A stretch of 64,000 nucleotides of DNA from an uncultured Actinomycetota bacterium (GCA_963753435.1 CAVWCF010000001.1:922711-986710), one strand, 5' to 3'; shown: positions 27,335-55,516, counted from the first letter of the stretch. The notes: generated from the letters alone by a model not told the origin. Made by a program: numbers and translations.

Positions 27335-28018
27335 ATGCCGACACTGCTGGATGCGCTGGACGATCTCGTCTCGGCCGACGCAGCCAGGCCGCTGTTGACC
27401 TGGTACCGCGACGGGGCCCGGGTGGAACTGTCGGGGGCCACCGTGGCCAACTGGGTCGCCAAGACGGCGGGGCTACTGGAGAACGAGCTACTCATCGGGC
27501 CCGGCTGCACGGTTCGGGTTCTTCCGGGACAGCACTGGCTGTCGCTGGTGGTCCCGCTTGCTGTTTGGCGCGTAGGCGCCGCCCTCGTCGATGCTGGGCC
27601 GGCGGACCTGTTGGTGTCCGAACAAGTGGACGAGGACATCGATGCCGCGGAGTTCCTGATGCTGCCCAGCGACCCGTTCGGTCTGTCCCGCGCCGCGGTA
27701 CCGCCCCCGTGGCAACTCTTCAGCGAGTTGGTTCAGGCCCAACCCGATCGCTACACCGCGCCACTACCCGGCGGTCCGCAGTTGGCGATCGCGTCCGCGC
27801 CCCAGTTGACTCACGAGCAGCTGATCGACCGGGCCCACGCCGACGCGGCGGCCGTTTCGCTGCCGAGCGAAGGCCGGTTGCTGCTGGTCACCACAACCAA
27901 GTCCGCAGACCCCCTGCGGCTCTGGTGCGCAACCATCTCGGTGTCCGGCTCGATGATCCTCGCCGCGGAGTTGACCGAAGGGCTCGCGGCTGAGAAGGCC
28001 GACGTAACGATCAGTTGA
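27335..28018 (+). CDS. Conserved actinobacterial protein (TIGR03089-like)
   Basis: 227 aa, no recognisable catalytic motif. The family assignment is from memory of typical neighbours of this locus. Confidence 0.4.
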   Translation: MPTLLDALDDLVSADAARPLLTWYRDGARVELSGATVANWVAKTAGLLENELLIGPGCTVRVLPGQHWLSLVVPLAVWRVGAALVDAGPADLLVSEQVDEDIDAAEFLMLPSDPFGLSRAAVPPPWQLFSELVQAQPDRYTAPLPGGPQLAIASAPQLTHEQLIDRAHADAAAVSLPSEGRLLLVTTTKSADPLRLWCATISVSGSMILAAELTEGLAAEKADVTIS

Positions 28019-29510
28019 CGTGGGTGGCGGCCTGCCGAGCCACCGCGTCCGGCACGGCAGCGGGACCACCGACGATCGTGATCAGGTCAACGGTCGGAGT
28101 CGCGTCCAACCATGCGCCAACAGCGGCGGAGAGCACGGATGTGCCCGTCAACAGCACCGGCTGACCAAGAGCGCCACCCGGCAGCGCATCCACCACGTTC
28201 GCGGATGCCGCTGAGGCCAGAACCACTTCTTCGGCGTCGTCGCGGAACCGATCCGCCACCGCAACCGACAGGCCCGGCAGGTCTGCGACGTGGATCCGTT
28301 CTCCACCTGGCAGCGACGCGACCACGCCGTCGGTCAGTGGCGAAGCGAAGGAGACCGCAAAAGCCTGCGACACGCCGATCTGGGCCATCGCTTGAGCAGT
28401 GGTGGCCGGGACGTAGTCCGCTCGGGTCAGCAGGATCGGGGCCCTAATTGCCGCTGCCACCCCGCCGACCATCAGCGAAGTCGGGAGTTGGCTGTCCCAG
28501 AAGGGCGTGACGAATGCCTGGGGGGCTCCCCCGTTGATCTGGGCCAGTTCGCGGGCGATCTGCTCGGCGGTGACGAACCGATCCGCGCCGGCCAGTCGGG
28601 TCACGGCGATCCCCTCGCTCACCAGTTGGGCCTCGACGGCGGCGCCAACGGCGGCCGGACCCCCAAGCACGTAGGCCTGGTTGGCGGAGCGCCGTCGTAG
28701 TTCGGTGAGTGTCGCCGCGGGGATGCTGTCACCGCGGACGAGCAGCACGGGTGCGTCCGCCGAGGCCGCCAGCGGCGCTCCTACCAGCCCGTCGACCAAA
28801 TGCCCCTGCTCTCCGGACGCGATGACGACAGTTCGCTGGTTGGGCCTGGTCTCCTTGGCGATCGCAGCCGCAGTCGCGTACCGGTCCGAACCCCAAAGGC
28901 GGCGCACGTTGCAGCCGTCGGCACCGGGCAGGCAGCCACCGCCCGTGAAGAAGCTGGTCTCCCCCCGGGCTCCGGGCCAGGAGAACGAGATGTGGATGTG
29001 ATCGGTGTGTGGGCTCGAACCGGTGTAGGTGCGCCAAGGCTTGGCCGGGTCGGAGTCGTAGGCGCGCCACATGCGACCGTTCCAAATGACATACATGACG
29101 CCCATCCGCCGCGCCATCGCATGTTGGTTTCCGTGTGCGTCTGTGGCCAACAGCCAAGCCAGGAAGTCCTCAGCGACGGCCCGTTGGGCGGAGTTGCCGG
29201 CGTTCAGCATCCAGTCGAGCGCGCGACCCTCTTCATGGCCACTCGTGGTCGCGGAACTGCAGGACCGCAGCGTCCCGTAGCTGGTGTAGGTCGGATACGC
29301 CGTACGCAACAAGCTGATCGTCGCCGTGACGCCAGGCTGCACCGTGCTGGAGCACCCGGTTCCCTCGGTGGAGTCCCAGCCGGAGTACCCCTCAATCCAC
29401 GGACCGAAGTCAGTCGTCACCACCGGTGCTGCCGTAGCCGGCACCGAAGGCAGGAGGAGGCCCGTCGCTGCGAGCGCAACCGCTAGGGCGACGCGGATCA
29501 ACGAGGGCAT
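28011..29510 (-). CDS. Secreted LAS/M15-like zinc peptidase domain fused to three CWB2 cell-wall-binding repeats
   Basis: Signal peptide MPSLIRVALAVALAATGLLLPSVPATAAP. H-x6-D (SGHEEGRALDW) and H-x-H (HTDHIHISF) arrangement as in LAS metallopeptidases. Then three repeats of the CWB2 pattern (GSDRYATAAAIA...VVIASGEQGHLVDGLVGAPLAA...APVLL). Confidence 0.65.
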   Translation of the reverse strand: MPSLIRVALAVALAATGLLLPSVPATAAPVVTTDFGPWIEGYSGWDSTEGTGCSSTVQPGVTATISLLRTAYPTYTSYGTLRSCSSATTSGHEEGRALDWMLNAGNSAQRAVAEDFLAWLLATDAHGNQHAMARRMGVMYVIWNGRMWRAYDSDPAKPWRTYTGSSPHTDHIHISFSWPGARGETSFFTGGGCLPGADGCNVRRLWGSDRYATAAAIAKETRPNQRTVVIASGEQGHLVDGLVGAPLAASADAPVLLVRGDSIPAATLTELRRRSANQAYVLGGPAAVGAAVEAQLVSEGIAVTRLAGADRFVTAEQIARELAQINGGAPQAFVTPFWDSQLPTSLMVGGVAAAIRAPILLTRADYVPATTAQAMAQIGVSQAFAVSFASPLTDGVVASLPGGERIHVADLPGLSVAVADRFRDDAEEVVLASAASANVVDALPGGALGQPVLLTGTSVLSAAVGAWLDATPTVDLITIVGGPAAVPDAVARQAATHVN

Positions 29511-29553
29511 AACGCTGTCAGTCGGCACCGGTCCATGGGCACTTGAGCGCCCA

Positions 29554-31665
29554 TTAGGCGCGCATCGCCGCCAGCAGGGCCGCATCTGAGACGGGAGCCT
29601 TGGCGCCTACGGCCACGACCTCCTGGACTCCCGGCGTCGTCTGCAACCACACCGAGGCCGCCCCCGGCAGACCACCGGGCTGAGTCAGCAGCACCAGTCG
29701 TCCCCACGCCCCCGCGGGAAGGGCGTCCACCAGGTGGGCGTCGACACCGGCAGCCAGCAACACCGGGGTCGTCGGAACAACGGAACGGAACGCGCGGGCC
29801 ACTTCCGAGGCGGTCTCAAACCGGTTCGCGCCGTTGGCCCGCCACGCCTTCGGCAACTGCGCCGCCACTGCAGTTCCGACCTGAGCGGTTCCGCCGACGA
29901 TGGTGGCCGCAACCGGGCGGATCACATCCAAGACCTGACGCGTCGGCGTCGGAACCCCGTCGCGCGTTACCAACAGGATGGGACGACCGGAGCCAGCAGC
30001 CGCGCCGCCGGCCCCCAGCGCATCCGCCAAGGCCGTGCCGTTGACAACAAGTACCGGTCGGCCCTCGGGCACGCCCATCGCCCGAGCCACTGCCGCAGCG
30101 GTCTCGTACCGATCGGCACCGGCCAACCGCACCACCTTGGTGACGCCAGCCGCGGTAAGCCCGGCCACCACGGCATCGCTCAGTGCGCCGGTGCTCCCGA
30201 TGACATAGGCGGTGCGCGCCCCGCGCCGCTTGAGCTCGGACACTGTGACCGACGGCAAACCGCCCGCACGGGCCAGCAGCAGCGGCGCGCCTAGAGATTT
30301 CGCCAATGGCGCCGCGACCATGCCGTCGACCAGGTGCTCGGTCTCCCCGGAGGCGATGACCACCGTGGCTCCGGTGGGTACAGCCGCCTTGGCAACAGCC
30401 ACCGCGGTGGCGTACCGGTCCGCCCCGGCGACCCGGTCGCCCTGGCGCAACACCCACGTGGAGGGCAGCCCCAATGATGTGCGCAGCTTCTCGCCGGTGA
30501 TGCTCGCCGCCTTGCCGCTGGCCGACCATGCGGTCGCCCTCTTGACTCCGCCGCCGACGGTTCGGACGGACAGGTCCAGCCGGACTACATCCGGCAGTCC
30601 GAACGCGGCCGCCATCTTGGCCTGGCTGATTGATCGCGACCAGGCCCGGTATGGGTTGGATGACTCGGTTGCCCCAGGGTCTGCGACGCTGCGCAGGTAG
30701 GGCAACGCCGAGGACCAGACCTCTTCACTGTTCTGGGTGCGGCCGCCGCTGGAGGAGTAGTAGTAGGCGCTCACCGGCTTGCCGCCGTAGGCCACCACCT
30801 TGCCGGTAGTCGACCCCGTTGACGTGGCGTTCACCGCCGCGGTCCAAGCGCTGCCGTACGAGCCCGATTGCTTTGACCACCCGACGTAGACCTGGTCACT
30901 CGTCCCGTCGTAAAGGTGACAAGCGCAGGCCGAGCGGACGCCGGCGTTGTACTTGAGCACTGCGAAGGAACGCGCTGCGATCACCTGAGCCTGCAGAGCT
31001 GCGGCCGGCCAGGAGGAGGGCATCTCACCCAATCCGTACAGGTACTCGTCGCCGAGACGGAGGTTCACGACCACCTCGAGCTTGCCGCCAACCACCTGCG
31101 CGGTGACGAACCCATGGCGATACGTCGTGCCGTTGACGCTAATCAAGCTGGCGATGTCGCCGGTCGAGCCCGGGTAGCGGGTGCCGCCCCAGAGGAAGGT
31201 CACCTTGGCGCCGCTGCGGACCGTGCCGCCGTTGCGCTTGAGGACGACCGAGGAACCGCTAGGAGCGATCGTCCACGTGTCAGCGGCCGCCCCGACCATC
31301 CCCCAGGTGCCATCAACGCCCACGTGGATCTTGCCGCCGCCACTGGCCAGCGGTACCCCCTTGAGGGTCGCGGCCGAGGCCGCATGCAGGACGTTCACCC
31401 GCACAGTCATGTCGTCGCGCGCGGGCGCAGCGACAGCGCCGGTGTAGTAGTGGGCGACGATCTGGTCGGCGGACTTGCCAGCGGCAGCGAACGCCTTTGC
31501 CCCGTACTGCGACATGCCGACGCCGTGGCCGAAACCGGAGCCGTAGAGCGTGAATGTCGAAGGGGCACTGCCCGCTTGTGCGGCGGGAACCAGGAGTCCG
31601 GTGACCGACAGCGCCGTAACCGCCGCCAGCGCCCAGCCGGCCTTGATCGCGCGCGAGCCGATCAT
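29554..31665 (-). CDS. SpoIID/LytB-domain peptidoglycan lytic enzyme fused to three CWB2 repeats
   Basis: Signal peptide. SpoIID signature YGSGFGHGVGMSQYGA plus the second conserved block (YYSSSGGRTQNSEEVW). Three C-terminal CWB2 repeats (GADRYATAVAVA...; GADRYETAAAVA...; GANRFETASEVA...). Confidence 0.8.
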   Translation of the reverse strand: MIGSRAIKAGWALAAVTALSVTGLLVPAAQAGSAPSTFTLYGSGFGHGVGMSQYGAKAFAAAGKSADQIVAHYYTGAVAAPARDDMTVRVNVLHAASAATLKGVPLASGGGKIHVGVDGTWGMVGAAADTWTIAPSGSSVVLKRNGGTVRSGAKVTFLWGGTRYPGSTGDIASLISVNGTTYRHGFVTAQVVGGKLEVVVNLRLGDEYLYGLGEMPSSWPAAALQAQVIAARSFAVLKYNAGVRSACACHLYDGTSDQVYVGWSKQSGSYGSAWTAAVNATSTGSTTGKVVAYGGKPVSAYYYSSSGGRTQNSEEVWSSALPYLRSVADPGATESSNPYRAWSRSISQAKMAAAFGLPDVVRLDLSVRTVGGGVKRATAWSASGKAASITGEKLRTSLGLPSTWVLRQGDRVAGADRYATAVAVAKAAVPTGATVVIASGETEHLVDGMVAAPLAKSLGAPLLLARAGGLPSVTVSELKRRGARTAYVIGSTGALSDAVVAGLTAAGVTKVVRLAGADRYETAAAVARAMGVPEGRPVLVVNGTALADALGAGGAAAGSGRPILLVTRDGVPTPTRQVLDVIRPVAATIVGGTAQVGTAVAAQLPKAWRANGANRFETASEVARAFRSVVPTTPVLLAAGVDAHLVDALPAGAWGRLVLLTQPGGLPGAASVWLQTTPGVQEVVAVGAKAPVSDAALLAAMRA

Positions 31666-34025
31666 CGCGCGCTCCGAGCAGACAGGATCAGCACGCTGTC
31701 GGACACCGCCGCGGGGCCGCCGGCAATCGTGAGACTGCGAGCCCGGTCATCCAGCCATTGCTGCGTAGCCGATGGCAGCGCAGTCGGGGTGACCAGGACG
31801 ACCGATCGCCCCAGTGCCCCGGCGGCCAGCGCGTCAGCCAGGTTGGCCGTCATGCCACTGGCGACAACGGCCAAATCCGGCGCTGTTGCGAAGGAGAAAC
31901 CGTTGGCGACGGCGACCGCGGTTGCATAGCGGTCCGCCCCACCGAGCCGGGCGGCCTTGGGCAACTGGGTTCGCACCGTTTCCGAGATGACGCCAGTGCT
32001 GCCAATGACCGAAGTGGCCGTCGTGCCCAACGCGGTCAGCGCTTGCTTGGTTGCCGCTGGAACCTCGTTCTTGCGGGTCAGCAGGATGGGCCGACCGGAG
32101 GCCGCGGCCGGACCTGCTGCCGACAAGGCGTCGACCAAGGAGGCGTCCTCACCGGATGCAACCACCGCGGCCGTTCCGGTCGGCGCCAGCGCTTCGGCCA
32201 CCAGGCCGGCAGTTGCGAAGCGGTCGGCTCCGGAGATCTGAGTTACCGCGGCGCCAAGCGCGCGGACCTCGTTCAAAACCGTGGCCTGCAACGCGCCTAC
32301 CACGTAGACCTTGGTGGCACCGCGGCTGAGCAGTTCCGAGCGAACTGCTGGCGGGAGCTTGTCGTTGGCCGACAGCAGGACCGGTGCACCCAACTTCTTC
32401 GCGAGTGGGGCGACCACGAGCCCGTCGACGAGATTTCGCTGTTCACCGCTGACGAGGACGACGGTCTTCGCGCTTGGCGCCGCCTCGCGTCCCAGTGCCA
32501 CGGCCGTGGCCCAACGGTCGGACCCCCCGGACCGCGACGCATTCGGGCAGGCCAGGCTTGCCCCGGCACTCTTCAAGACCGTGTAGTAGTACTGCAGCGG
32601 ACGCGACGTGCTGCCGGAGCCGGAAGCTGTCAGCGTCAACCGGAACCGGCCGATGCCTGCGGACGCGCCGCTGTCGGTCTTGCCGTCCCACGGGATCAAC
32701 CACGAACCCGCCCCGGCGTCCCCCGACCAGGTGCGCACTGTGGCTCCCGCGCAGAAGTCCTCCACGCGCAGCTGCCAGGACTGCGGAATCGAGGATGTCG
32801 CGCGGATCCTGGCAACGGCCGACCCCAACACGCCCGAGCCGGAGTCGAAGCTCGGGTTGAACAGGGCGGCCCCGATCAGCGAACGGGCGGCGCTGCGAAT
32901 CGCCGACAGTTGGGAGAAGAGGTAGCGCCCCGGGCAGGCAGTGGAACCCACGTCGCGATGGGCCGCAAGCACCGGGATGGTCGCCTTCTGCCCGGCGGAG
33001 TACTTCGAAGTGCCGCCACCGCTGCTGGTCAAAGTCACCGAGCCAGTGGGGTCGCGGTGGAAAAGGTCCAGTTTCCAAGCAGCCACCCGCGATATCCCCT
33101 GCACCAGACCTGAGGTCGGAGAAGCGGTATCGAGGTTGCCGAGCGCAGCAATCGCGAAGGTGTCCGTGTTGAACCCACCGGTCGCGCCACTCTGCACGGC
33201 CTTGTCGACGCCACCGGCGCGACCCTCGTAGATGCGGCCCGCCTGGTCGACGAGGAAGTTATATGGGATGTCGGAGTAGCCACGGCTGTTAACCGAGTAC
33301 GCGTAGATGGCGCGAATGTCCTTGGCGGCGTCTGCCTGCGTCCAGCCCGACTTCTGCCAGTAGCTGTTCGACGACGCGGTGTGGTGCACGAAGCCGGCCC
33401 GGATCGTCGACATGTACTTGGGGCTGCCAGAGCGAAGCGACTCGTCAGCACCCCACTGGGCCCGGGACACGAATGCCGGGGTCGTTGCGGCTGCTTGCGC
33501 GCTGCTCACCGGAGTGGGAGTTATGGCGCCGTCGGCCGGCGAGGACCCGGGATCGATCAGTTCTACGCGAAGGTCCTTGGGCAACGCCTGCCCGCCGGCG
33601 ACAACACGCACCTGCACTGCGTCGGAGTCCGGAGCGAGCAGTGGCTCGGTGCCGCCTCTGGTGACCTGTTGGCCTTCCTCGCTGTTCGCATCCGGGCTGT
33701 CGTCGGACTGGTGTAGTTCGACCCACTCACCCCATTCGCCGCCGACCCGAGTCCGCACCTCGAACTCACTGCCGACCGGCTCGCGGCCGGACCAGGTGAT
33801 CCCGACGAGCCGGAACGGCTGCTCTGCCTCATGCGTGACCGTAGGCACAGACCCCGAGTCAGCGGCGAGCGAACTGGCTCCGGACGCCGTCAAGGAGACC
33901 TGCTCCACTACCGGGCTGACCGGTCGCGGCTTGGCCACGGCTGGCGTTGCCACTGGCAGGACCAAGACGGACCCGACGATGCCCGCTGCGGTGAGTGTGC
34001 TGAGCCAAATCCGTGGGGACAACAT
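31662..34025 (-). CDS. N-acetylmuramoyl-L-alanine amidase (Amidase_2/PGRP domain) fused to three CWB2 repeats
   Basis: Signal peptide MLSPRIWLSTLTAAGIVGSVLVLPVATPAVA. PGRP/amidase_2 block (FVSRAQWGADE...AGFVHHTAS...YNFLVDQAGRIYEGR). Three C-terminal CWB2 repeats. 4-nt ATGA overlap with the downstream SpoIID gene. Confidence 0.8.
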   Translation of the reverse strand: MLSPRIWLSTLTAAGIVGSVLVLPVATPAVAKPRPVSPVVEQVSLTASGASSLAADSGSVPTVTHEAEQPFRLVGITWSGREPVGSEFEVRTRVGGEWGEWVELHQSDDSPDANSEEGQQVTRGGTEPLLAPDSDAVQVRVVAGGQALPKDLRVELIDPGSSPADGAITPTPVSSAQAAATTPAFVSRAQWGADESLRSGSPKYMSTIRAGFVHHTASSNSYWQKSGWTQADAAKDIRAIYAYSVNSRGYSDIPYNFLVDQAGRIYEGRAGGVDKAVQSGATGGFNTDTFAIAALGNLDTASPTSGLVQGISRVAAWKLDLFHRDPTGSVTLTSSGGGTSKYSAGQKATIPVLAAHRDVGSTACPGRYLFSQLSAIRSAARSLIGAALFNPSFDSGSGVLGSAVARIRATSSIPQSWQLRVEDFCAGATVRTWSGDAGAGSWLIPWDGKTDSGASAGIGRFRLTLTASGSGSTSRPLQYYYTVLKSAGASLACPNASRSGGSDRWATAVALGREAAPSAKTVVLVSGEQRNLVDGLVVAPLAKKLGAPVLLSANDKLPPAVRSELLSRGATKVYVVGALQATVLNEVRALGAAVTQISGADRFATAGLVAEALAPTGTAAVVASGEDASLVDALSAAGPAAASGRPILLTRKNEVPAATKQALTALGTTATSVIGSTGVISETVRTQLPKAARLGGADRYATAVAVANGFSFATAPDLAVVASGMTANLADALAAGALGRSVVLVTPTALPSATQQWLDDRARSLTIAGGPAAVSDSVLILSARSAR

Positions 34026-34044
34026 TCCTCCGTCATTCCTCCGT
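34023..34044 (-). repeat. Perfect 11-bp tandem duplication covering the Shine-Dalgarno sequence and the ATG of the amidase gene (minus strand reads acggaggaatg acggaggaatg)
   Basis: Read directly: cattcctccgt at 34023-34033 and again at 34034-34044. Only the promoter-distal ATG (complement of 34023-34025) is in frame with the amidase ORF. Confidence 0.85.
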
Positions 34045-34168
34045 AGCGTTATCGCAGGCGCCAGCGGAAGCCGCCTCACCCATTTGGAGGTATCGGGCCC
34101 CGCCGCCGCGGACTTGAACACCCTGAGGCCTCCGCGCGCAGACACGCCAGAGGGCGGCCGAAAGGATC

Positions 34169-35401
34169 ATGGACGAGCGCCTACGGTGTTCCCCCGTGAG
34201 CTTCGGACGGACTCGACTTCCCCGGGTGGAGTCCCTCACCGGCCTGCGCTGGTTCGCCGCCTTCGCCGTCTTCGCTCACCACCTGAACAACTTCGCGCCC
34301 CTGCCGATCATCAAGGACATGGCGTTCGGTGTGACCGGCGTCACGTTCTTCTTCGTGCTCTCCGGGTTCGTGCTGACCTGGTCGGCGACCGCCAACGACA
34401 CCGCCGGCCGGTTCTACTGGCGCAGGTTCGCCCGCATCTGGCCGTTGCTGGCGGTGTCGACCCTCCTGGCGATTCCGGTCTTCTACGGCTCATCCGACAG
34501 TTTCCAGAAGCCGTTGGATTCCACGGCGCTGATCGGCATCGTCTTGTGCCTGCTCCTGCTGCAGGCCTGGTCGGACAACCCCGCCATCTTCTTCGCCGGC
34601 AACCCGGCCGCCTGGTCCCTGAGTTGCGAGGCGTTCTTCTACGCGATCTTCCCGCCGACCATCCGCCGAGCGATGCCGCGGGGAGTCCCGGCCATGCTGA
34701 TGGCCGCCGTCGGCCTCGTGATCGTGAGTTGGGCTCTCCTGTTGTGGCTGCGCTATGCACCACCGGACCCGGACTCACCGCTGCGCATCTTCTTCCGAGA
34801 GCCCATGTACCGGGTTCCGGAGTTCCTCTTGGGTGTTGTGCTTGGAGTGGCGGTTCGCGCCGGGTGGCGACCGCGCCTCTCGGTGCCCGCCGCGGTCGGG
34901 CTGGTCTTCCTCGGAATAGCCACCCTCGTCTTGTGGCGGCACAGCCCCGGCCTGACTGAGTCGTTCATGAAGCCAACTAGCGCCATGAATCAACTAATGG
35001 CGCCGCTGTACGGCCTACTGATCGTCGCCGTTGCCGTCCGCGACGTTCGCGGTGGTCAGTCCCGACTGCAAACCGGCTGGTTGGTCGCGCTGGGCAAGTG
35101 GTCCTACGCCTTCTACCTGGTGCACGCCACGGTGATCTACACCTTCCGCCTCGTCCTCGGCGTACAGCCTTCGTCGTGGTCCAACGTCGTATGGATCGGC
35201 CCCATGCTGCTGGCGTCAATCGCGGTTGCGGCCGCGTTGTACATATGGGTGGAGCACCCGACGGAACGGCGCCTGCGGGCCATGCTGCCGCCGCGGCCGG
35301 AAGAGCCCCCGACTGCCGACGACCCCGTTCCCGCTGCCACGACGACGGTTGCCGCTACGCGTGCGGACCCGGTCGACCGCGATGGCGGATCAGCCCGCTG
35401 A
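34169..35401 (+). CDS. Acyltransferase family 3 (OatA/OafA-like membrane O-acyltransferase)
   Basis: 10-11 TM helices. Conserved LRWFAAFAVFAHH start and the interior His/Ser pattern of the acyltransferase_3 family. 410 aa. Confidence 0.8.
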   Translation: MDERLRCSPVSFGRTRLPRVESLTGLRWFAAFAVFAHHLNNFAPLPIIKDMAFGVTGVTFFFVLSGFVLTWSATANDTAGRFYWRRFARIWPLLAVSTLLAIPVFYGSSDSFQKPLDSTALIGIVLCLLLLQAWSDNPAIFFAGNPAAWSLSCEAFFYAIFPPTIRRAMPRGVPAMLMAAVGLVIVSWALLLWLRYAPPDPDSPLRIFFREPMYRVPEFLLGVVLGVAVRAGWRPRLSVPAAVGLVFLGIATLVLWRHSPGLTESFMKPTSAMNQLMAPLYGLLIVAVAVRDVRGGQSRLQTGWLVALGKWSYAFYLVHATVIYTFRLVLGVQPSSWSNVVWIGPMLLASIAVAAALYIWVEHPTERRLRAMLPPRPEEPPTADDPVPAATTTVAATRADPVDRDGGSAR

Positions 35402-38038
35402 CCCCAACCCAAGGAAGGGCGCCAGAACAGCAGCGCTCTTCCTGCCATCGTGGAGTTCAGAGACGAATCTCAGCCCGGACGCCGCGGATGCGCGGACCTG
35501 CTCCGGATCGCTGAGCAGCGCCAGGAGCACCTGCTCGAGCGAGTCCGCATCCGCCTGAACCACTGGTAGCGGCAACGGCAGGCGGTCGCGAACCGACGCG
35601 GTCACGTTGCCGACAACGCACCTGCCCGCGGCCATCGCTTCGCAGGCCAGGACCCCGTAGGAGCCGATCGCGAATTGATCGAGCACGATGTCTGCAGCGG
35701 CCATGGCTGCGGGCATTTCCTCCGGTGGAACACCCTGCAGCCGCCGATAGGTGAGTACCCCGTCCGCCTCCAGGCGCTGAAGCAGCGAATCCACCCGGTC
35801 ACTGCCCTTGAGGGAAGACCGCGATGGGGCATGCAGCACCACCGGCGGCCCGTCGTGCTCCAACGGCGTTGTCGACGTTGCCCACATCTGCATGTCCACC
35901 ACCACCGGCAGCCACGTCGCGGTGGGCACGTCGTCCAGCAGGTCCGGCGTGGAAACAAAGACCGGCCCATCAAAGCTGTCGATGAGCGGCCGCAGCTCGG
36001 CCGTCACCCGGCTGAGCCGGGTGCTCAGTTCGCTGGTGGGGTCGGCGTACGGGGAGTGCAGATGCATACGACGGTGGCGGGCCGGGTCACGCACTTCCGA
36101 ACCGTGGAAGACCGCCGCGACCTCCAGGCCGTTGCTGCGCAGGGCTGCCGCATCGTCAGCGAAGGTGCGGCCATTGAGCAGCCCGGCGATCGGGCGCCCT
36201 GCTTCCAGCAGGACGTGGGTCGCGGTGTCGCAGAGGTGCGCGAAGTACTGCTGCTGCCACTGCAGATCCTTCGCGTAGGTGTCCGGCGAGATCCGCGTGT
36301 CCGCGGGGAAGTCCAAACCGCCCTTCTCCACGGCCAGCACCTCGGTCTGCACTTCGGGGTAGGCCCGGTGCACCGCCTGCGCCCACTGCCAGGCCTGCCC
36401 GGCCATGTTCGCCGGCCCAACGGCCAGGTGAGTCGCACCCGATGCCCGCCGGCCCGCCGCCGGTGTCGATTCCACCAAATCACCCGGATTGAGATCGGGC
36501 ACGCGGCCAAGGTCCGCCCAGTTCGCCTCCGGCAGCAGCCGGCGATACAGCTGCGCCAGTTCGGCTTCCTGCGCCTCCCAGGTGAGTGGCGCAAGCAGCG
36601 CAGCGTCGGTGACACGTTCTCGGTATTCGACGTACCCGGCGCGCACCCGGCCCACGGCGTCAGCCAGCGACCGCGGATCGTCCGCAACGTGCACCTCGCC
36701 GGTTCCAGTCTCGGCGAGGAACTCCGCTTGGGTGCGGCAGTCACTGGCCACGACGGGCAGCCCCGCGTGCAGGTACTCGAAGAGTTTGTTGGTCAGCGCC
36801 ATGTCGTGACTGCCGAAGTGCAGCAAGGGCAGCAGGCCGACATCAGCAGAGGACAGGAACGAAACGACGTCGCCAGGGGCTACCGGGTTGAGGAAGTGGA
36901 CACGATCCGAAACACCAACCGATGCCGCTTGCTCCCGAAGTCGCCGCACCGCATACGTGTCGTTGTGTGGCACACACACAACGGCCAAGTGCGCGTCGGG
37001 GAGTTGCGACAGCGCGTCGATGGCCGTCTGCACTCCCCGGGCCACCGTCACCCCACCGGAGTAGACGAGCAACAGGGTGTCCGCATCCAGACCACATTGC
37101 TCGCGGACGCCTTCCTGACGAGTTCCGCGGCGGCTCTCATCGTGGATCGGCGTGTTCAGGATCAGCGTCGGTTGCTGGCGTAACGAGTGCTCGCGCTGAA
37201 GCCGCGACGCGATCGCCGGGGAAACGGTGATGACTCCGTCGGCGCGGCGGATGAAGTCGGATTCCAGCGCCGCCCAAGCCGATCGCACTCGGGCGGTTCG
37301 TCCCCCGTACAGGCTCAGCCCGCGCACGTACTCATGCGCGTCATAAACCCAGGGTGTCTGCCTGCCGGCCCGTTCCGCCCGGACGGCGGCATTGGCGGCC
37401 ACCAGCAGCAGGTCGGCATCATGGGAATGGATCAGATCCGGCTGCAGCGAATCGATGACGGCCGCGTATGAGGTCTCGTAGTCGTACACCTGCGGTACCA
37501 CCCGACCCCAGACGACCGGCCACGTCAGCCGGGCCATCAACCCGTCGTAGGCACGCCAGGACTTCGTCCAGACCTTGGCGAAGCCGCGCTGCCCGGCTCG
37601 GCGGGCGCGCAACCACTGACCGCGCAACTGCCACCAGCGCCGACGCAGTCGCCGCCGCTCAATGCCGGCCCTGGTGTACTCCAGTCGCGCCCGGGCGCGG
37701 ACGGCCTGCTCCTCGGCGGGTGTTCGGTAGCCGACCAGGTTCGGCGGCCTGCGACGACGCCCGCGCGCGGCATTGCGTGCGTCCCGAGAGCGCCAGGAGA
37801 TGGGTATTCGCAGGACGGTTACTGGCCCCATGTTCCGGGTGCTGCGCCGACCATCCGAGGCGTACGCGATCAGCGTGACACGCGCGCCCAACCTGGCTGC
37901 CGACAGCGCCGTCTTGCGGATTCGGGTGTCCGCGGCGACGTCGTTGCCGGCCAGCATCACCACATGCGGTTGCACGGTCTCGCGGGCCACGTCCGGGTCG
38001 GTCACGTCGGGAAACCTATGCGGCGCCGCCGGGTCCAC
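35390..38038 (-). CDS. Large tandem GT-B glycosyltransferase (N-terminal GT4-like module plus a second GT-B module)
   Basis: 882 aa. Module 1 ends with the GT4 motif (LTNKLFEYLHAGLPVVASD...). Module 2 (from about HLAVGPANMAGQAWQWAQ) has a second GT-B C-lobe (VVLHAPSRSSLKGSD...ACEAMAAGRCVVGNV). Module 2 is paralogous to the C-terminus of the 39829-41694 protein. Confidence 0.65.
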   Translation of the reverse strand: MDPAAPHRFPDVTDPDVARETVQPHVVMLAGNDVAADTRIRKTALSAARLGARVTLIAYASDGRRSTRNMGPVTVLRIPISWRSRDARNAARGRRRRPPNLVGYRTPAEEQAVRARARLEYTRAGIERRRLRRRWWQLRGQWLRARRAGQRGFAKVWTKSWRAYDGLMARLTWPVVWGRVVPQVYDYETSYAAVIDSLQPDLIHSHDADLLLVAANAAVRAERAGRQTPWVYDAHEYVRGLSLYGGRTARVRSAWAALESDFIRRADGVITVSPAIASRLQREHSLRQQPTLILNTPIHDESRRGTRQEGVREQCGLDADTLLLVYSGGVTVARGVQTAIDALSQLPDAHLAVVCVPHNDTYAVRRLREQAASVGVSDRVHFLNPVAPGDVVSFLSSADVGLLPLLHFGSHDMALTNKLFEYLHAGLPVVASDCRTQAEFLAETGTGEVHVADDPRSLADAVGRVRAGYVEYRERVTDAALLAPLTWEAQEAELAQLYRRLLPEANWADLGRVPDLNPGDLVESTPAAGRRASGATHLAVGPANMAGQAWQWAQAVHRAYPEVQTEVLAVEKGGLDFPADTRISPDTYAKDLQWQQQYFAHLCDTATHVLLEAGRPIAGLLNGRTFADDAAALRSNGLEVAAVFHGSEVRDPARHRRMHLHSPYADPTSELSTRLSRVTAELRPLIDSFDGPVFVSTPDLLDDVPTATWLPVVVDMQMWATSTTPLEHDGPPVVLHAPSRSSLKGSDRVDSLLQRLEADGVLTYRRLQGVPPEEMPAAMAAADIVLDQFAIGSYGVLACEAMAAGRCVVGNVTASVRDRLPLPLPVVQADADSLEQVLLALLSDPEQVRASAASGLRFVSELHDGRKSAAVLAPFLGLGSAG

Positions 38039-42983: not shown

Positions 42984-43064
42984 CCGTGGCCCTCTCTTTC
43001 GGTGATGGGAGGTTACCCGGCGCGCTACCCTCCCCCGCACTCTTCGGGACACAGGAGGGCCTTT

Positions 43065-46287: not shown

Positions 46288-46877
46288 GCGTCCTCCTCGA
46301 GCAGCACGCCATCCTGCTCCCGGTAGTTGCGCCCCGTTCGCGGGCACGTCCAAGTACCTGAACCGGCATCGGTAAGCGGCTCGCCGGCATGCCCAACCCA
46401 GCGAATCCGCTTGGCGGGAACGCCTGCGACCAGCGCGAAGTCCGGCACGTCGCGAGTGACAACCGATCCGGCGGCGACCATCGCCCACCTCCCGATGGTC
46501 ACCGGGGCGACGCAGACCGCGCGGGCCCCGATGGATGCACCCGTACGGATCGTCACCCCGACCGGTTCCCAGTCGTCACCGGACTTGACGGTGCCATCCG
46601 GGTTGACCGACCTGGGGTAGTGGTCGTTGGTCAGAACCACGGCCGGACCGATGAACACGCCGGACTCCAGTTTCGCCGGCTCGTAGACCAGGGCGTAGTT
46701 CTGGATCTTCACGTTGTCGCCCACGTCAACGCCGGTTCCGACGTATGCACCGCGACCAACAACGCAGCCTTCGCCCAGTCGCGCGCCCTCGCGGATCTGG
46801 GCCAGATGCCAAACAGAGGTCCCCTCGCCCATGGCAACGTCATCGGCGACATCCGCAGACGGGTGCACGCGCGCCAT
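46284..46877 (-). CDS. Hexapeptide-repeat sugar N-acetyltransferase (WbpD-like)
   Basis: Left-handed beta-helix hexapeptide repeats (VHPSADVADDVAMGEGTSVWHLAQIREGARLGEGCVVGRGAYVGTGVDVGDNV...). About 197 aa from MARVHPSADV. Confidence 0.8.
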   Translation of the reverse strand: MARVHPSADVADDVAMGEGTSVWHLAQIREGARLGEGCVVGRGAYVGTGVDVGDNVKIQNYALVYEPAKLESGVFIGPAVVLTNDHYPRSVNPDGTVKSGDDWEPVGVTIRTGASIGARAVCVAPVTIGRWAMVAAGSVVTRDVPDFALVAGVPAKRIRWVGHAGEPLTDAGSGTWTCPRTGRNYREQDGVLLEEDA

Positions 46878-46965
46878 GGGACTCCGATCGGCTGGGGGCA
46901 GGCGCATACGCTATACGAGCCGAGGAGCGATTCGGGCCGTCGTAGACGGCCGTAGCGGAGGTTTG

Positions 46966-48297
46966 ATGACGGCGTCTGCACCGCACGTCCTCTACATCGC
47001 ATGGGGTTTCCCGCCTTGCCGCGGCAGCGGTGTCTACCGCGCACTCGCTACGGCCAACGCGTTTGCCGCCAACGGCTGGAAAGTCACGGTGCTCACCGCC
47101 GATCGAGAAATCTGGCTCCGCTACACCGGCGCGGACCTCAGCCTGGAGGAACGCATCGATCCGCGGGTCAACGTGGAGCGGGTTCGGTTCGAGTGGCCGA
47201 CTCTGGACCCTGACATCTCCAGTTGGTCGCGCTTGCGTGTCGCCACCCCGCGGGTGTGGGGCCGGGTACGCCGCCTGCGCGACCAGTTGCCGTTCCCCGA
47301 GGTCGCCTACGGCCCTTGGCTGCCCGTACTCAAGGAAGCGGTGCAGCGCATCCACGAACAGGACCCGGTCGATCTGACCGTGGCAACGGCAAACCCGCAT
47401 GTGACATTCGGCGCAGCACACCACCTGTGGCGGACCGCGGGCGTGGACTACGTCATGGACTACCGCGACGCGTGGACCCTGGACGTGTTCAGCGGCGACC
47501 GGGTGCACTCACCGCGATCGCGCGCCGGTCGACGCGAAGCCGAACTGATCGGCGCCGCCAAAGAGGTCTGGTTCGTAAACGACCGGATCCGCGACTGGCA
47601 CCGCACCCAGTACCCGGGGCAGGCCGATCGCATGCACACAGTCGCCAACGGCTACGACCCGGAGTTCGTCCCACCGGGCATCGGCCGCGCCCCCGATCCG
47701 GATCGGCCGTTGCGCTACGGATACCTGGGCACGATCTCGACCCGGGTTCCGATCGGTGAGTTCGCCGAGGGCTGGCGCCAGGCTCGCCGGGCGGAGCCGC
47801 TTGCGGACGCCACCGCGGTAATCCGTGGGCACCTCGGGCACTACCGCGCCGCGAATGCGAACGTGTCGGCGATGCTGGATTCGGCGCAAGAAATCGGCAT
47901 CACGTACGACGGACCCGTGGCTAAGGCGGACGTTGCGGACTTCTATCACTCCGTGGACGTCCTCCTGCTCATCTTGGGCTCGGGCCGGTATGTGACCTCG
48001 GGCAAGGTGTTCGAGTACGCCGCAACTGGGCTGCCGATCGTGTCCGTTCACGACCCCGACAGCGCCGCGAGCACGGTGCTGGCCGACTACCCATCGTGGT
48101 TCCCCGCCGCCAGCCTCAGCGCGGCGGACATCGCAGCCGCGCTGCTCGCGGCCGGGCGGGCGCGCCGTGCCGAGACGGCCGAAGCGCGCGATGCCGCCGT
48201 CGCGGCGGCCCAGAAGTTCGCGCGGGATGCCCAGCTGCGTCCGCGCGTCGATGCCCTGCGCCCCAAGGCGCCAACCTCGAGTGCACCGACATCGTGA
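46966..48297 (+). CDS. GT4-family glycosyltransferase (paralogue of 38528-39832)
   Basis: Start MTASAPHVLYIAWGFPPCRGSGVYR, parallel to HVLMLPFHFPPARGSGVNR in the paralogue. C-lobe KVFEYAATGLPIVSV. Confidence 0.7.
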   Translation: MTASAPHVLYIAWGFPPCRGSGVYRALATANAFAANGWKVTVLTADREIWLRYTGADLSLEERIDPRVNVERVRFEWPTLDPDISSWSRLRVATPRVWGRVRRLRDQLPFPEVAYGPWLPVLKEAVQRIHEQDPVDLTVATANPHVTFGAAHHLWRTAGVDYVMDYRDAWTLDVFSGDRVHSPRSRAGRREAELIGAAKEVWFVNDRIRDWHRTQYPGQADRMHTVANGYDPEFVPPGIGRAPDPDRPLRYGYLGTISTRVPIGEFAEGWRQARRAEPLADATAVIRGHLGHYRAANANVSAMLDSAQEIGITYDGPVAKADVADFYHSVDVLLLILGSGRYVTSGKVFEYAATGLPIVSVHDPDSAASTVLADYPSWFPAASLSAADIAAALLAAGRARRAETAEARDAAVAAAQKFARDAQLRPRVDALRPKAPTSSAPTS

Positions 48298-48860: not shown

Positions 48861-48881
48861 GCTGAACGAGCGGCGGGACAG

Positions 48882-49856
48882 TCAGGCAAGGAGTGCGGCG
48901 ACGGCCGCCGCCAGCCGCCGGTACTCCCCCGTGTCCGTTCGCGTGGCCGCCCAATCCCGAGCTCGATCGCGTAGTCCCAGCAACTCTGATGGATCCAGTT
49001 GCCAACGCCGCAGCACTTCGCCGGCCGCAGCCGCATCGACCACGATCCCCGCTCCGGAGTCCACCAGCAGTGACTCCTGCCGGGGCAGTGGCGATGCCAG
49101 CACCGGCAGTCCGGCGGTCAAGTACTCCACGACCTTGGTCGGCAAAGCCTCTACGAACGCCGGCGTCGAGTGCAGCAGACTCAAGCCCACCCACGCGTCA
49201 GCGGCACCCGCCCAGGCCCGCTCGGGGGGTTGGCGGCCCCAGAGCCGGACACGGTCACCAAGTCGCTCCGCTGCGATCTGGGCCCGCAGCTCGTCCGCTT
49301 CGCTCGGGGCGATCGGTCCAACGAGATCCATCGTCCAGTCTGGCGCTTGCGCGATGGCGCGAACCATGTCGAACGCGCCCCGTGTGCGTCGGATATCGCC
49401 TACATACAGAGCGCGAGGCCGGGCAGCGGGATCGGCCGGCTCCGGCAGATAGCCGGACTCCGGCGTGTTGCGGACGACGACGCGGTTGCGCGCGCGCAGT
49501 GGCGGCACCTGGTCGTCAGCCACGATGGTCAGGTCCGCGCGAGCGGTGAGTTCGTTGGCCCAGCGCAGTCCCGAGGTAACGGCCTTGACCTGGGCCGAAG
49601 GCCAATCTCGGTCCAGCACCAACTTCGTGTAGTCCTCGTGTACGTCGACCGCCACGGGCGGACCGCCCAGGCGGCGCCGTGTCATTGCGGGCACGACCAG
49701 GTCCGGGTCCAGCACCAGCAGTACTGAACCCGTGGCCTGCCAGGGCAGTCGCGCCCCGGCCCGCAGGCGCGCACCGAGCCCCGAGCGAGGACGGGTGAAC
49801 ACACGCTCTGCTGATTCCGGGGCCGCGGCTGGATCACCCAGCCCGAGCACCTCCAC
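48882..49856 (-). CDS. Short GT4-like glycosyltransferase
   Basis: 324 aa. C-lobe with VVEYLTAGLPVLASP (E-x7-E region). The N-lobe is reduced. Confidence 0.6.
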   Translation of the reverse strand: MEVLGLGDPAAAPESAERVFTRPRSGLGARLRAGARLPWQATGSVLLVLDPDLVVPAMTRRRLGGPPVAVDVHEDYTKLVLDRDWPSAQVKAVTSGLRWANELTARADLTIVADDQVPPLRARNRVVVRNTPESGYLPEPADPAARPRALYVGDIRRTRGAFDMVRAIAQAPDWTMDLVGPIAPSEADELRAQIAAERLGDRVRLWGRQPPERAWAGAADAWVGLSLLHSTPAFVEALPTKVVEYLTAGLPVLASPLPRQESLLVDSGAGIVVDAAAAGEVLRRWQLDPSELLGLRDRARDWAATRTDTGEYRRLAAAVAALLA

Positions 49857-49957
49857 CGACAGGCCGTGCTCGGTGAGTGCGGCGACGGTTCGGTGCAGCC
49901 GCGCATCGGCGACGTCATGTCCCGTCGTCAGAACGCTGACATCGACTGGCGCGCCGG

Positions 49958-50735
<778 letters not shown>

Positions 50736-50758
<23 letters not shown>

Positions 50759-51617
50759 GCTCCCTGGACAAGAAGGCCCAACTCCCGACCAGCAGGGCGA
50801 TGATCGGCCACACGATCGCGCCCACGATCATGCCCGTGGTGGGAGAGGTAGCCCGAACCATGAGTTCACCCAAGCTCCCCATCAGCCCGAACAATGGGTT
50901 CAGTTGGAGCAAGACGAGCAGGACCGGGTTGTCCTCAAGCCGGTCCAGCACCAGTTCTGGCAACCAGATGATCGGGGATACGTACAACCAAATCCGCAGG
51001 AGGTACGGAAGGAAACTGGTCGTGTCGCGGAAGTACACCTGAAGGGTCGCCATCAGCATCGCCAGGCCAGACGCGAAGACGACCACGAGCCCAAGCAGCG
51101 GGATGGTCCACAACTGGATCCAGCCGAACGGCAGACCGGCGAATACATGGATCACGCCGTACACGGCAAGAGTCGGCAGGAACCGGTAGAACGCTGTCCG
51201 GACTGCGGAAAGCGGCAGCAACACCCGAGGGAACGCCGTGTTGGTGATCATCTTGCCGGCGCTGACGACGCTCGTTGCCCCACCCGACATTGACTGCGCG
51301 ATGAAGTAGAAGGTGAACAGACACAGGAGCAGGTGCGGGAAGAACGCGGCGTCGGAACTTATGTCGCGACCACCGATGATCACGATCAGCAGCCAGTAGA
51401 CGCAGGCCAGCAGCAGCGGATTCAGGATGTTCCAGATCCGCCCCAGCACGGTGAGGCTCTGCTGGGCCCTGGCGGTGGCTCGGGACAACTCCGCCGCGAA
51501 CTCGCGGCGGCGCCAGGCCTCAGACAAATAGGGACCAAGCGGCGGCAACCCAGCCCGATGGGGTGCATAGACGTGGTGATCGCCCAGGAAATCCACGTCA
51601 GGGGCTGCTGAGCGCAC
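50736..51617 (-). CDS. ABC-2-type polysaccharide exporter permease (TagG/Wzm/KpsM-like)
   Basis: Six TM helices. The N-terminal cytoplasmic segment and helix pattern are typical of ABC-2 permeases. 23-nt overlap with the ATPase gene. Confidence 0.8.
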
Positions 51618-51691
51618 TCAGACCTTCTCTCGAATCGGACCGCCACGCGCGAGGGACCGCAGCGGGAGAGTACTAGGAGACAGGCGCGCAC

Positions 51692-52828
51692 CTAGGGCGC
51701 GGCAAGCGCCAAAGCCTGCACGAGCCTGGGCCCATCCACGTCCCAAGACAGTTCGGGTTGGGCCGCGGCAACGGCGGCGCACAGCTCGGCATAGTTGGTC
51801 CGGGCCGCTTCGACCGCCGCAGCCAGCGACTTGTGGTCGCCCGGGCGGTAAAGCGTGCCGATGCCGTATCGGCGGACCACGGCCGCAAGTTCATCCACGT
51901 CAGTTGCCACCACGGGCACACCGGCGTGGATCGCGTGGAAGAGCTTGTTGGGCAGAGCCAGGCGGTGGTTCTCCCACCGATCGGAGTGAGACACCAGCGC
52001 CAAGCCGGCCGCCTGCAGCCGCTTCGTCACCTCATCCACCGGTTCGGCGCCGAGCACGGTCACCTTCCCGGTTCGTAGGCGCGCCAAGAACTGCTCGTCG
52101 GCGGGACCGAGCAGGGTGACCGGCAGGTCCAGCAATTCCGCTGCCTCGATCGCCACCTCGATTTCCCGGTCGGCCGCGATGCGGCCCGCGTAGACGAGTC
52201 CGGTCGGCTCGGGGATTGGTTGCAGCTGCGCATTCAACGGAAACGTGTTGCGGACGACTTCGACGTTGTCCCAGCCGTAGCGGCGCCGGAGGGCGGCTGC
52301 AACTCCCTCCCCGACAGTGATGACTACGCGTGCTTGACCACCTAGTACCCGTTCCTGCGCGATCTCTCTGCGGTTTGCCAGCGGCGTTGGGCGGCCTTGA
52401 CGCGGTCGCCCAGGCCAGTACTCGTGCGTGTCGTACACGTACGGCACGGCGCTGGCCCGGGCCAGTTCCGCGCCGACGGCCAACGCGGTGAAGTCGTGAG
52501 CATGGACAACGTCGAATTCGCGCCCTTGCGCGTCCGCGTGCGCGGCTTCGGCCCAGGCCCCGAAAACCGCGGCTCGATGCCGCGGCAGCAGAAGCCACCT
52601 GGCCACCCGGTACAGCAGGGTCGTGCGCCGAACGCGGGCCGCAGTCGCTGGCAGCGTCGGCTGATCCCCCACGCTCGACACGGTGACGCCGGCCGGGGGA
52701 ACGAAGTCGCCTGGAACCGCCCGACCGATCACGTGCACGGCGTGGCCGGCTTCGGCGAGGGTCTGTGCCTCACGAAGCACTCGGGTATCAGTGGCGACGG
52801 ACGTCGCCACAAGCATGAGGATCTTCAC
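51692..52828 (-). CDS. GT4-family glycosyltransferase
   Basis: GTG start VKILMLVATSV, GTGA-overlapping the upstream GT2 stop. C-lobe NKLFHAIHAGVPVVATD (E-x7-E region). Confidence 0.75.
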   Translation of the reverse strand: MKILMLVATSVATDTRVLREAQTLAEAGHAVHVIGRAVPGDFVPPAGVTVSSVGDQPTLPATAARVRRTTLLYRVARWLLLPRHRAAVFGAWAEAAHADAQGREFDVVHAHDFTALAVGAELARASAVPYVYDTHEYWPGRPRQGRPTPLANRREIAQERVLGGQARVVITVGEGVAAALRRRYGWDNVEVVRNTFPLNAQLQPIPEPTGLVYAGRIAADREIEVAIEAAELLDLPVTLLGPADEQFLARLRTGKVTVLGAEPVDEVTKRLQAAGLALVSHSDRWENHRLALPNKLFHAIHAGVPVVATDVDELAAVVRRYGIGTLYRPGDHKSLAAAVEAARTNYAELCAAVAAAQPELSWDVDGPRLVQALALAAP

Positions 52829-53796
52829 CGGCGCGCCAGCCTTGCCGGACTGGACAGGAAGCCCCATCCCCAGGCCAGGTGCATCACCGGCAATACGACC
52901 GGGAGACGAACCGCGCTGCGCCAGGCAAGCCGACTGCCGATGACCGCGCTGCCGCCGAGCACGACGAGGGCGTATCCGCCCGGCAACAACCACCCGACAC
53001 GAAGGCCCAGCAGCCCGGCGGCAGTGCCGGCGACGACACCGACCAGCGCCATGGGCGGAGCCAGGTACCGGAAGGTGACGGTGCCGCGATGCTGCCGGGC
53101 AACGACCCGCCGCCACCTCCCATAGTCGCGATATTGGCGCGCCAGCGCCCGGACGGTGGATCGGGGTCGGTACGTCACCCGCAGCCGCGGCGTGAACCAG
53201 ACGGTGCCACCGGTCTGCCGGATCCGATGGTTCATCTCCCAGTCCTGCGCCCTGGCGAAGCCCTCGTCGTACCCGCCGACTCGTTGCAGGGCCGCACGGC
53301 GGAAGGCGCCCAGGTAGACGGTGTCGGCGGGGCCCTCCGCGCCGCCGGTATGGAAGCGGGCCGCCCCCACCCCCAGCGGACTGGTCATGGCCGCCGCCAC
53401 CGCCGCTTCAAATGGGGTCGTGCCCTCAGCCGCCATCACGCCACCCACATTGTCCGCACCCGTGGACTGCAGCACCTCCACCGCGACGCGCAGGTAGTCG
53501 GGCGGGAAGAGCGCGTGTCCGTCCACGCGAACCACCAAATCGTGCTCGGCGGCCCCGATGGCGGCATTCAGCCCGGCCGGGGTTGCTCCAGTGGGATTCG
53601 GGACCAGTCTGATCCGTGGGTCCGTTGCGCTCAGGTCCCGGGCGATCACGTCCGTGCCATCGGTCGACGGCCCCAGGGCCAGGATCAACTCCCACGGGCC
53701 GGGGTAATCCTGCCGTTGGATCTGGGTAACGGACTCGGCCAGGTGCCGCTCCTCATTGAGAACCGGCATCACCACTGAGACGGGCGGCCAGGACAC
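52825..53796 (-). CDS. GT2-family glycosyltransferase with C-terminal membrane helices
   Basis: VSVVMPVLNEERHL ... DxD-type region VVRVDGHA ... C-terminal hydrophobic helices (LAPPMALVGVVAGTAAGLLGL...). Confidence 0.8.
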   Translation of the reverse strand: MSWPPVSVVMPVLNEERHLAESVTQIQRQDYPGPWELILALGPSTDGTDVIARDLSATDPRIRLVPNPTGATPAGLNAAIGAAEHDLVVRVDGHALFPPDYLRVAVEVLQSTGADNVGGVMAAEGTTPFEAAVAAAMTSPLGVGAARFHTGGAEGPADTVYLGAFRRAALQRVGGYDEGFARAQDWEMNHRIRQTGGTVWFTPRLRVTYRPRSTVRALARQYRDYGRWRRVVARQHRGTVTFRYLAPPMALVGVVAGTAAGLLGLRVGWLLPGGYALVVLGGSAVIGSRLAWRSAVRLPVVLPVMHLAWGWGFLSSPARLARR

Positions 53797-53834
53797 GGCC
53801 GAACCGTATCCGGGCAGCGCGTCGCGCAGATGAA

Positions 53835-53856
53835 TGTCACGTTCTTGTCACGTACG
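53835..53856. promoter_or_regulatory. 11-bp-phased direct repeat tgtcacgttct/tgtcacgtacg (OmpR-family, MtrA-box-like candidate operator) in the divergent GT2-LCP promoter region
   Basis: Read directly at 53835-53845 and 53846-53856. The repeat lies in a locally AT-richer 148-bp divergent intergenic region, about 90 bp upstream of the LCP start. Confidence 0.4.
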
Positions 53857-53944
53857 CTGTGCCTGGCCAGGTTTGGCGGGAACCGTCCGGGGGCATCATG
53901 CGCCCAAGTAGTGCAGACATGGCACGACCCCGCCTGCAGGAGCC

Positions 53945-55516
53945 GTGACCGACGTCCCACAGCCGGCCGCTGGCGAGTACGGCGCGGCAGATCAAGGAGA
54001 GCGCGTGAGCAGTGGAGTGGGTGCCGCGCCGTCGGCTGCTCCAGCGCTTCCCCCGGAGTTGGACCCACGGCAGCCACCGCGCCGCAACTGGGTGCTTCGG
54101 GGTCTAGCCGGTGGCGTCAGCGCTGCGATCGTGGCGGCGAGCCTGTTCGGGTACATCACCTTGAACTACTACGACGACAAGATCACCCGGATCGACAACG
54201 TCTTCGCCGGTCGCGATTCGGATCGGCCGGTCAAGGTCGCGACCGAGTCGATCAACATTCTGCTGGTCGGGTCCGACAGCCGGGAAGGACTCACCCGCGA
54301 AGAGATCTCCCAACTCAAGGTGGGCATCGAGGGCGGACCCGACGGCAGCGGTCGCCGTGCCGACACCGCGATCCTGATGCACCTGGACTCCGACTGGTCC
54401 CGGGCGACCTTGGTGAGCTTCCCCCGTGACTCCTTGGTCGACATCCCCGAGTTCACCGACTCGGACGGGAGCACCACCCGAGCTCAGCAGAACAAGCTGA
54501 ACGCCGCTTATGCCATCGGCGGCCCGCAGTTGCTTGTGTCGACGATCGAGCAGAACACGGACCTGCGCATCGACCACTACGTCGAAGTGGGGTTCGACGG
54601 CTTCGTGAAGGCCGTGGACGCCGTCGGCGGAGTCGATGTGTGCACCGAGGAAGCGATCAGCGACCGGCGCTCCGGTCTCGAACTGGCTGCCGGCGAGAGT
54701 CGACTGGACGGCGCCCAAGCGCTGGCATTCGCACGCGCCCGCTACTTCGACCCGACCGCGGATATCGGCCGCATGCAGCGGCAGCAGCAGTTGCTGGCCT
54801 CGCTGTTCAACGAAGCGACGTCGACCGGGGTGCTGTTGAACCCCCTGCGACTGAACGGCCTGCTCGACGCCACGCTGTCCTCGATCTCCACCGACCCCGG
54901 GTTCGACCGTCAACTCATGCTCAACCTCGCTACCAAGATGCGTGATGTCGCCGGCGGCGAAGTCGTCTTCACCACCGTGCCGATCGGTGACGCCAACAAC
55001 CGGATCGAGGGCATCGGATCCACCGTGGAGTGGGACGAGCAGGCCGCTGAGGAGTTGTTCCGCGCCATCCGCGAGGACCAGCCCATCGGGTCGCAGTCAG
55101 AGGAGGCGGCCGCGGCGGCCCCAAGCACCACGCCGGTCGTCTCAGTCCCACCGGGGTCAATCTCCATGAAGGTCCTGAACGGTGTGGGCACAGCGGGACT
55201 GGCCCGGCAGTCGGCCGACCAGCTGGCGGCCCTCGGGTTCTCGGTAACCGGCGTCGGCGACGGAGAACGCGTCACGGCCACGGAGATCCGGTACGACCCG
55301 CTGTGGGACGAATCGGTCAAGACCGTTGCCGCGGCACTGCCGGGCGCCCGGCTGGTGCCGGTGCCGGGCCAAGGCGGCACCTTTGTTGTCGTGATCGGCG
55401 ACGCGAACCAAGCGTTCCAGCCGGTAACGGTCCAGGCGGCCGCCGACGAGCCGGCCCCAACAGCTTCAGAGTCGGCAGCACCGGTCCGGTCCGCCGCCGA
55501 CCCGCTCTGCGGCTGA
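53945..55516 (+). CDS. LytR-CpsA-Psr (LCP) family glycopolymer-peptidoglycan ligase with C-terminal LytR_C domain
   Basis: N-terminal TM anchor. LCP core (INILLVGSDSREG...RADTAILMHLD...SFPRDS...LNAAYAIGGPQL...FARAR). C-terminal LytR_C-like domain (KVLNGVGTAGLARQSADQLAALGF). Confidence 0.85.
   Translation: MTDVPQPAAGEYGAADQGERVSSGVGAAPSAAPALPPELDPRQPPRRNWVLRGLAGGVSAAIVAASLFGYITLNYYDDKITRIDNVFAGRDSDRPVKVATESINILLVGSDSREGLTREEISQLKVGIEGGPDGSGRRADTAILMHLDSDWSRATLVSFPRDSLVDIPEFTDSDGSTTRAQQNKLNAAYAIGGPQLLVSTIEQNTDLRIDHYVEVGFDGFVKAVDAVGGVDVCTEEAISDRRSGLELAAGESRLDGAQALAFARARYFDPTADIGRMQRQQQLLASLFNEATSTGVLLNPLRLNGLLDATLSSISTDPGFDRQLMLNLATKMRDVAGGEVVFTTVPIGDANNRIEGIGSTVEWDEQAAEELFRAIREDQPIGSQSEEAAAAAPSTTPVVSVPPGSISMKVLNGVGTAGLARQSADQLAALGFSVTGVGDGERVTATEIRYDPLWDESVKTVAAALPGARLVPVPGQGGTFVVVIGDANQAFQPVTVQAAADEPAPTASESAAPVRSAADPLCG

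Follow-up and report, generated by a model that had tools for sequence, protein, structure and literature searches.

Three known wall-polymer clusters are close precedents of the locus reported here. In Bacillus subtilis, teichuronic-acid genes are laid out with genes for an amidase, a SpoIID/LytB protein, an LCP enzyme and a 2-epimerase (PMC8753576), and this tua-lytCBA-tagU-mnaA arrangement matches that of our locus. Clostridioides difficile has the cwp/PSII locus, and its CWB2 modules bind the anionic wall polysaccharide PSII, not peptidoglycan. The utr genes of Streptomyces griseus are the third: work on Streptomyces has already described ManNAc3NAcA teichuronic polymers together with the genes for them (PMC13274773), S. 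griseus and S. antibioticus having a like five-enzyme set with an acetyltransferase and ManNAc3NAcA/GlcNAc3NAcA teichuronic polymers demonstrated by NMR. The presence of CWB2 in Actinobacteria has also been noted (PMC5817068). Set beside these, the locus is genuine but a rather ordinary member of the kind known from Bacillus, Clostridioides and Streptomyces, and the initial annotation, which took a ManNAc3NAcA polymer combined with a CWB2 protein set to be an undescribed system, overstated its novelty. The sugar cassette with its paralogous glycosyltransferases (GTs) is found again in Janibacter, Knoellia, Motilibacter, Actinocrinis and Streptomyces.

The window, i.e. the whole stretch of 64,000 nucleotides analyzed, comes from an uncultured actinomycete for which the nearest named LpqB relatives are at most 44% identical; the wall-polymer region spans about 30 kb of its chromosome. 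Pfam and NCBIfam profile searches bore out the gene content claimed for 28011-55516, where we count 20 credible genes. On the left it is flanked by an Rv3264c-type ManB (26299-27312; 452 bits with NF052502, whose cut-off is 440) and by TIGR03089 (27335-28018; 148 bits against 85), and the proposed synteny with the mycobacterial Rv3261-Rv3276c region holds. The ORFs 26299-27639 and 41691-43523 are over-extended, their true starts being GTG 27312 and GTG 42983, and the ORF 48116-49036 was rejected for want of support. The estimate of about 20 genes was sound, but their supposed co-orientation was not: 16 of the 20 lie on the minus strand, and the acyltransferase, the epimerase, one GT and the LCP gene are on the plus strand. 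The genes are nevertheless largely translationally coupled, as had been stated, since seven junctions show 4-nt stop/start overlaps. The description as an accessory locus fails, because it bears no signs of mobility, with tRNA genes and repeats absent and GC only slightly lowered, and because even actinomycetes distant enough for LpqB to be only about 40% identical keep the layout in this position, including the hydrolase trio along with related sugar and GT genes. We think it probable that this is a resident cell-wall glycopolymer locus for a teichuronic-acid-like polymer with 2,3-diacetamido-2,3-dideoxy-hexuronic acid.

In the nucleotide-sugar cassette, five enzymes (6-dehydrogenase, 3-dehydrogenase, 3-aminotransferase, N-acetyltransferase and 2-epimerase) would convert UDP-GlcNAc to UDP-GlcNAc3NAcA and then to UDP-ManNAc3NAcA, and the pathway originally proposed is supported in that two of them match characterized enzymes specifically. 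First, the UDP-2,3-diacetamido-2,3-dideoxy-glucuronic acid 2-epimerase of the WbpI/WlbD/UtrH type (43002..44126, plus strand; PF02350, 297 bits) aligns at 363 bits (E 2e-107) with 8SXV, the characterized Thermus UDP-GlcNAc3NAcA 2-epimerase (PMC10622841), as against only 112-244 bits with UDP-GlcNAc 2-epimerases and 112-116 bits with those of E. coli and B. subtilis. Second, the left-handed beta-helix N-acetyltransferase of the WlbB/WbpD/UtrJ type (46284..46907, minus strand) matches WlbB (3MQG) at 151 bits (E 4.3e-43) over aa 11-201 of its 207. WlbB acts on the uronic acid form. The DegT-family sugar 3-aminotransferase, for the WbpE/UtrA step (45196..46287, minus strand, start likely ATG 46287; PF01041, 393 bits), matches WbpE at E 6e-69 and is flanked on both sides by ATGA overlaps. 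The NDP-N-acetylhexosamine 6-dehydrogenase, of the WbpA/UtrD or WecC type (41691..42983, minus strand), scores 293 bits with TIGR03026 (cut-off 189.8) and has 4R16 and Cap5O as top PDB matches; its substrate within the pathway is putatively assigned. The GFO/IDH/MocA nucleotide-sugar 3-dehydrogenase, for the WbpB/UtrB step (44198..45199, minus strand; PF01408 and PF02894), fits less well and counts against our reading: it is nearer to UDP-GlcNAc 3-dehydrogenases (7BVJ, its top PDB match, E 1e-23; archaeal NF040723, its top NCBIfam match, 196 bits, under cut-off) than to WlbA, with 3Q2K at E 2.7e-16, which leaves the step order of the pathway putative.

This affinity, and that of the 6-dehydrogenase for UDP-ManNAc dehydrogenases among solved structures, would suit two separate branches, with the epimerase and dehydrogenase yielding UDP-ManNAcA, the oxidoreductase, aminotransferase and acetyltransferase yielding UDP-GlcNAc3NAc, and the polymer combining ManNAcA with a neutral diacetamido sugar. 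We regard such a split as improbable, given the preference of the epimerase for the UDP-GlcNAc3NAcA enzyme over its E. coli and B. subtilis counterparts, the acetyltransferase being nearest WlbB, and the case of S. antibioticus, which is without an epimerase yet still makes GlcNAc3NAcA.

Chain assembly was credited to at least eight GT4/GT2 glycosyltransferases; there are seven GT genes, one of which has two GT-B-like halves, and no transmembrane segments are predicted in their products. The two-module enzyme, of 882 aa (35390..38038, minus strand), is GT4 in its N-terminal half (Pfam GT4/GT1 domains, aa 38-479) and again GT-B-like in its C-terminal half, which weakly matches PimB'; it is conserved in 27 actinobacterial loci and is a likely candidate for the polymerase. 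Its paralog, a GT-B-like protein of 621 aa (39829..41694, minus strand), is 46% identical to that C-terminal half over 370 aa, with every Pfam GT match under its cut-off. A second pair comprises a 434-aa GT4 enzyme (38528..39832, minus strand; Glyco_transf_4, 41.7 bits) and a GT-B-like one of 527 aa with weak Pfam GT matches (46714..48297, plus strand), which are 37% identical over 415 aa; orthologs of the latter, 54-62% identical, adjoin the sugar cassette in related loci. The remaining three are a 324-aa GT1/GT4-type enzyme (48882..49856, minus strand; PF00534, 48.6 bits), whose orthologs adjoin the ABC ATPase in L009, L014, L021 and L023, a GT4 enzyme (51692..52828, minus strand, start likely GTG 52828; Glyco_transf_4, 58 bits), and, overlapping its gene by 4 nt, a GT2 enzyme (52825..53796, minus strand; PF00535, 80 bits). 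The GT2 gene opens the operon diverging from the LCP gene, and its orthologs, 56-61% identical, lie beside LCP in many metagenome loci. Inside the GT operon lies a translationally coupled 171-aa ORF of no assigned family (38016..38531, minus strand; GTGA overlap with the upstream gene), for which there was no Pfam or NCBIfam match and no homolog in related loci.

The other components that had been listed are all present. An integral-membrane acyltransferase-3 of the OafA/YrhL type (34169..35401, plus strand; PF01757, 110.9 bits), with at least seven hydrophobic segments and a cluster member named peptidoglycan/LPS O-acetylase, is predicted to O-acylate the polymer. The Wzm/Wzt- or TagGH-type ABC-2 exporter comprises a 266-aa ATPase without a C-terminal carbohydrate-binding domain (49958..50758, minus strand; PF00005, 75.9 bits) and a permease with about six hydrophobic segments (50736..51617, minus strand; NF050109, 54.7 bits; PF01061, 21.2 bits, under the 26.9 cut-off), whose orthologs always adjoin the ATPase in related loci; the ATPase scores with NCBIfam Wzt (215 bits) and TagH (187-207 bits) are both under the equivalog cut-offs, which counts against our interpretation. 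The LCP (LytR-CpsA-Psr) glycopolymer-peptidoglycan ligase (53945..55516, plus strand; PF03816, 165.7 bits; TIGR00350, 157 bits against 62.3) has a single N-terminal transmembrane helix (aa 50-68) and a LytR_C domain (PF13399, 46.2 bits). Its gene is part of the conserved backbone of most actinomycetes, so that finding it adjacent says little for specificity. A scan of ORFs across the window revealed no WecA/TagO-type enzyme, in agreement with the earlier remark that the priming phosphoglycosyltransferase lies outside it. Together these genes support the proposed logic of cytoplasmic assembly followed by ABC export and LCP ligation.

The linkage chemistry is not readable from sequence, and ABC-2 exporters with GT4/GT2 sets are also used for capsules and O-antigen-like glycans, while LCP enzymes can glycosylate proteins, as is reported (PMC6381275). 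The product might be a capsule or exopolysaccharide, a lipoglycan, or a surface-protein glycan transferred by LCP as with Actinomyces oris LcpA. We think this unlikely: the LCP enzyme corresponds in position to M. tuberculosis Lcp1, which ligates arabinogalactan to peptidoglycan (PMC4981717), the scanned ORFs include neither capsule export genes of the Wza/Wzc type nor a sortase-substrate gene, and actinomycete polymers bearing this sugar came from purified sacculi. Equally small is the probability we give to the chain being grafted, as in S. griseus, onto a poly(ribitol/glycerol phosphate) teichoic acid whose synthesis is encoded elsewhere in the genome. The only genetically characterized actinomycete polymers of this sugar are indeed teichuronic/teichoic acid hybrids, and one Streptomyces locus has four of the five sugar enzymes, 64-71% identical to those of the window. 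However, the Pfam-scanned ORFs of the window include no TagF/TarL-type, CDP-glycerol or CDP-ribitol genes, its scans recognized no TarS-like GT, and the locus, which adjoins an LCP gene, itself encodes an ABC exporter, whereas a text search of the utr-gene paper finds mention of neither an ABC transporter nor an LCP.

The three CWB2 proteins in the interval are peptidoglycan hydrolases, as had been claimed; that count holds for the interval but not for the locus, as a fourth lies just past its end. The Rv3811-type N-acetylmuramoyl-L-alanine amidase (31662..34145, minus strand; Amidase_2, 38.3 bits; CWB2, 128 bits) is secreted and carries its CWB2 triplet at the C-terminus, along with an Ig-like domain, its orthologs being annotated as Rv3811_N + Amidase_2 + FlgD_ig + CWB2. 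An ATGA overlap joins its gene to that of a SpoIID/LytB-domain protein with a signal peptide and a C-terminal CWB2 triplet (29554..31665, minus strand; SpoIID, 46.4 bits; CWB2, 127 bits). The third (28011..29510, minus strand, start likely ATG 29510 in an ORF reaching 29585), also secreted, has a C-terminal CWB2 triplet (107 bits, three stretches) and no other match in the Pfam profile search. By motif and fold it is a VldE-like zinc L,D-endopeptidase: H92, D99, H168, H171 and H173 do not vary across 15 homologs, and in Foldseek its AF2 model (pLDDT 88.7) matches Cwp6 (E 1.5e-19) as well as 9FLH, the C-terminal domain of VldE (E 6e-5, TMt 0.83). The fourth protein (56075..58186, plus strand) combines a Tat-like signal and an N-terminal CWB2 triplet with a C-terminal (alpha/alpha)6-barrel of a small uncharacterized family, and is a candidate glycanase. 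In all four proteins, then, CWB2 occurs as a triplet; its fold matches Cwp6, Cwp8 and SlpA in Foldseek, and the P[ILV][ILV][LV] motif is present in all repeats of the endopeptidase and the SpoIID protein and in only two of the amidase and of the fourth protein.

The least certain element is whether these triplets bind this polymer, to which we give just under an even chance. The originally proposed docking gains from an enrichment of the cassette, adjacent in 4 of 11 informative metagenome contigs with a CWB2-bearing amidase against 0 of 30 without (Fisher p=0.003, uncorrected for phylogeny), from Pedococcus cremeus, where a CWB2 gene again adjoins the same kind of cassette, and from the C. 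difficile precedent. In three independent assemblies the hydrolase trio adjoins homologous epimerase, dehydrogenase and GT genes, and in a fourth it is at the corresponding site on a contig that stops just past the LCP gene, before any sugar/GT region; the trio is also on metagenome contigs L051, L052, L054 and L078. Alternatively, the hydrolases could be mere neighbors of a correctly identified polymer locus, brought there by a conserved wall-gene backbone (LCP, amidase, SpoIID, VldE-like peptidase, TIGR03089 and ManB), with the triplets binding peptidoglycan, some linkage unit that several polymers share, or a polymer whose genes lie elsewhere; we deem this possible but doubtful. Amidase and SpoIID genes lie between LCP and TIGR03089/ManB in many contigs without CWB2 or the cassette, and none of the 27 actinobacterial loci sharing the 882-aa GT, most of which hold cassette genes, has CWB2 within 10 kb. 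The orthologous hydrolases scanned beside the cassette in Janibacter and the metagenome-assembled genome L014 bear FG-GAP or PG_binding_1 instead, and in three Knoellia loci, scanned for the catalytic regions and for CWB2, both hydrolase catalytic regions recur in that place without CWB2. Moreover, CWB2 genes lie inside a rhamnan-type locus in Agrococcus, and away from polymer genes in Quadrisphaera and contig L049. Because hydrolases occur near the cassette elsewhere without CWB2, and Agrococcus CWB2 in a rhamnan-type locus, docking on the polymer is plausible but unproven.

From the enzyme families, the epimerase and acetyltransferase types, the secretion signals, the operon coupling and the conserved layout, which are plain from sequence and fold, we infer the polymer structure and its wall linkage as follows. 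A carrier, polyprenyl phosphate, would be primed by an enzyme encoded outside the locus, and the seven soluble GTs, including the two paralog pairs and the two-module likely polymerase, would build the chain on it at the cytoplasmic face. Once finished, the chain would be exported by the Wzm/Wzt (TagGH-type) ABC-2 exporter, O-acylated by the membrane acyltransferase-3 and transferred to peptidoglycan by the divergently transcribed LCP enzyme. The coupled amidase-SpoIID/LytB pair, the VldE-like endopeptidase and the glycanase-like barrel protein, encoded beside it, would be secreted and held in the wall of this actinomycete by their CWB2 triplets, whose likeliest ligand is this polymer or its linkage region.

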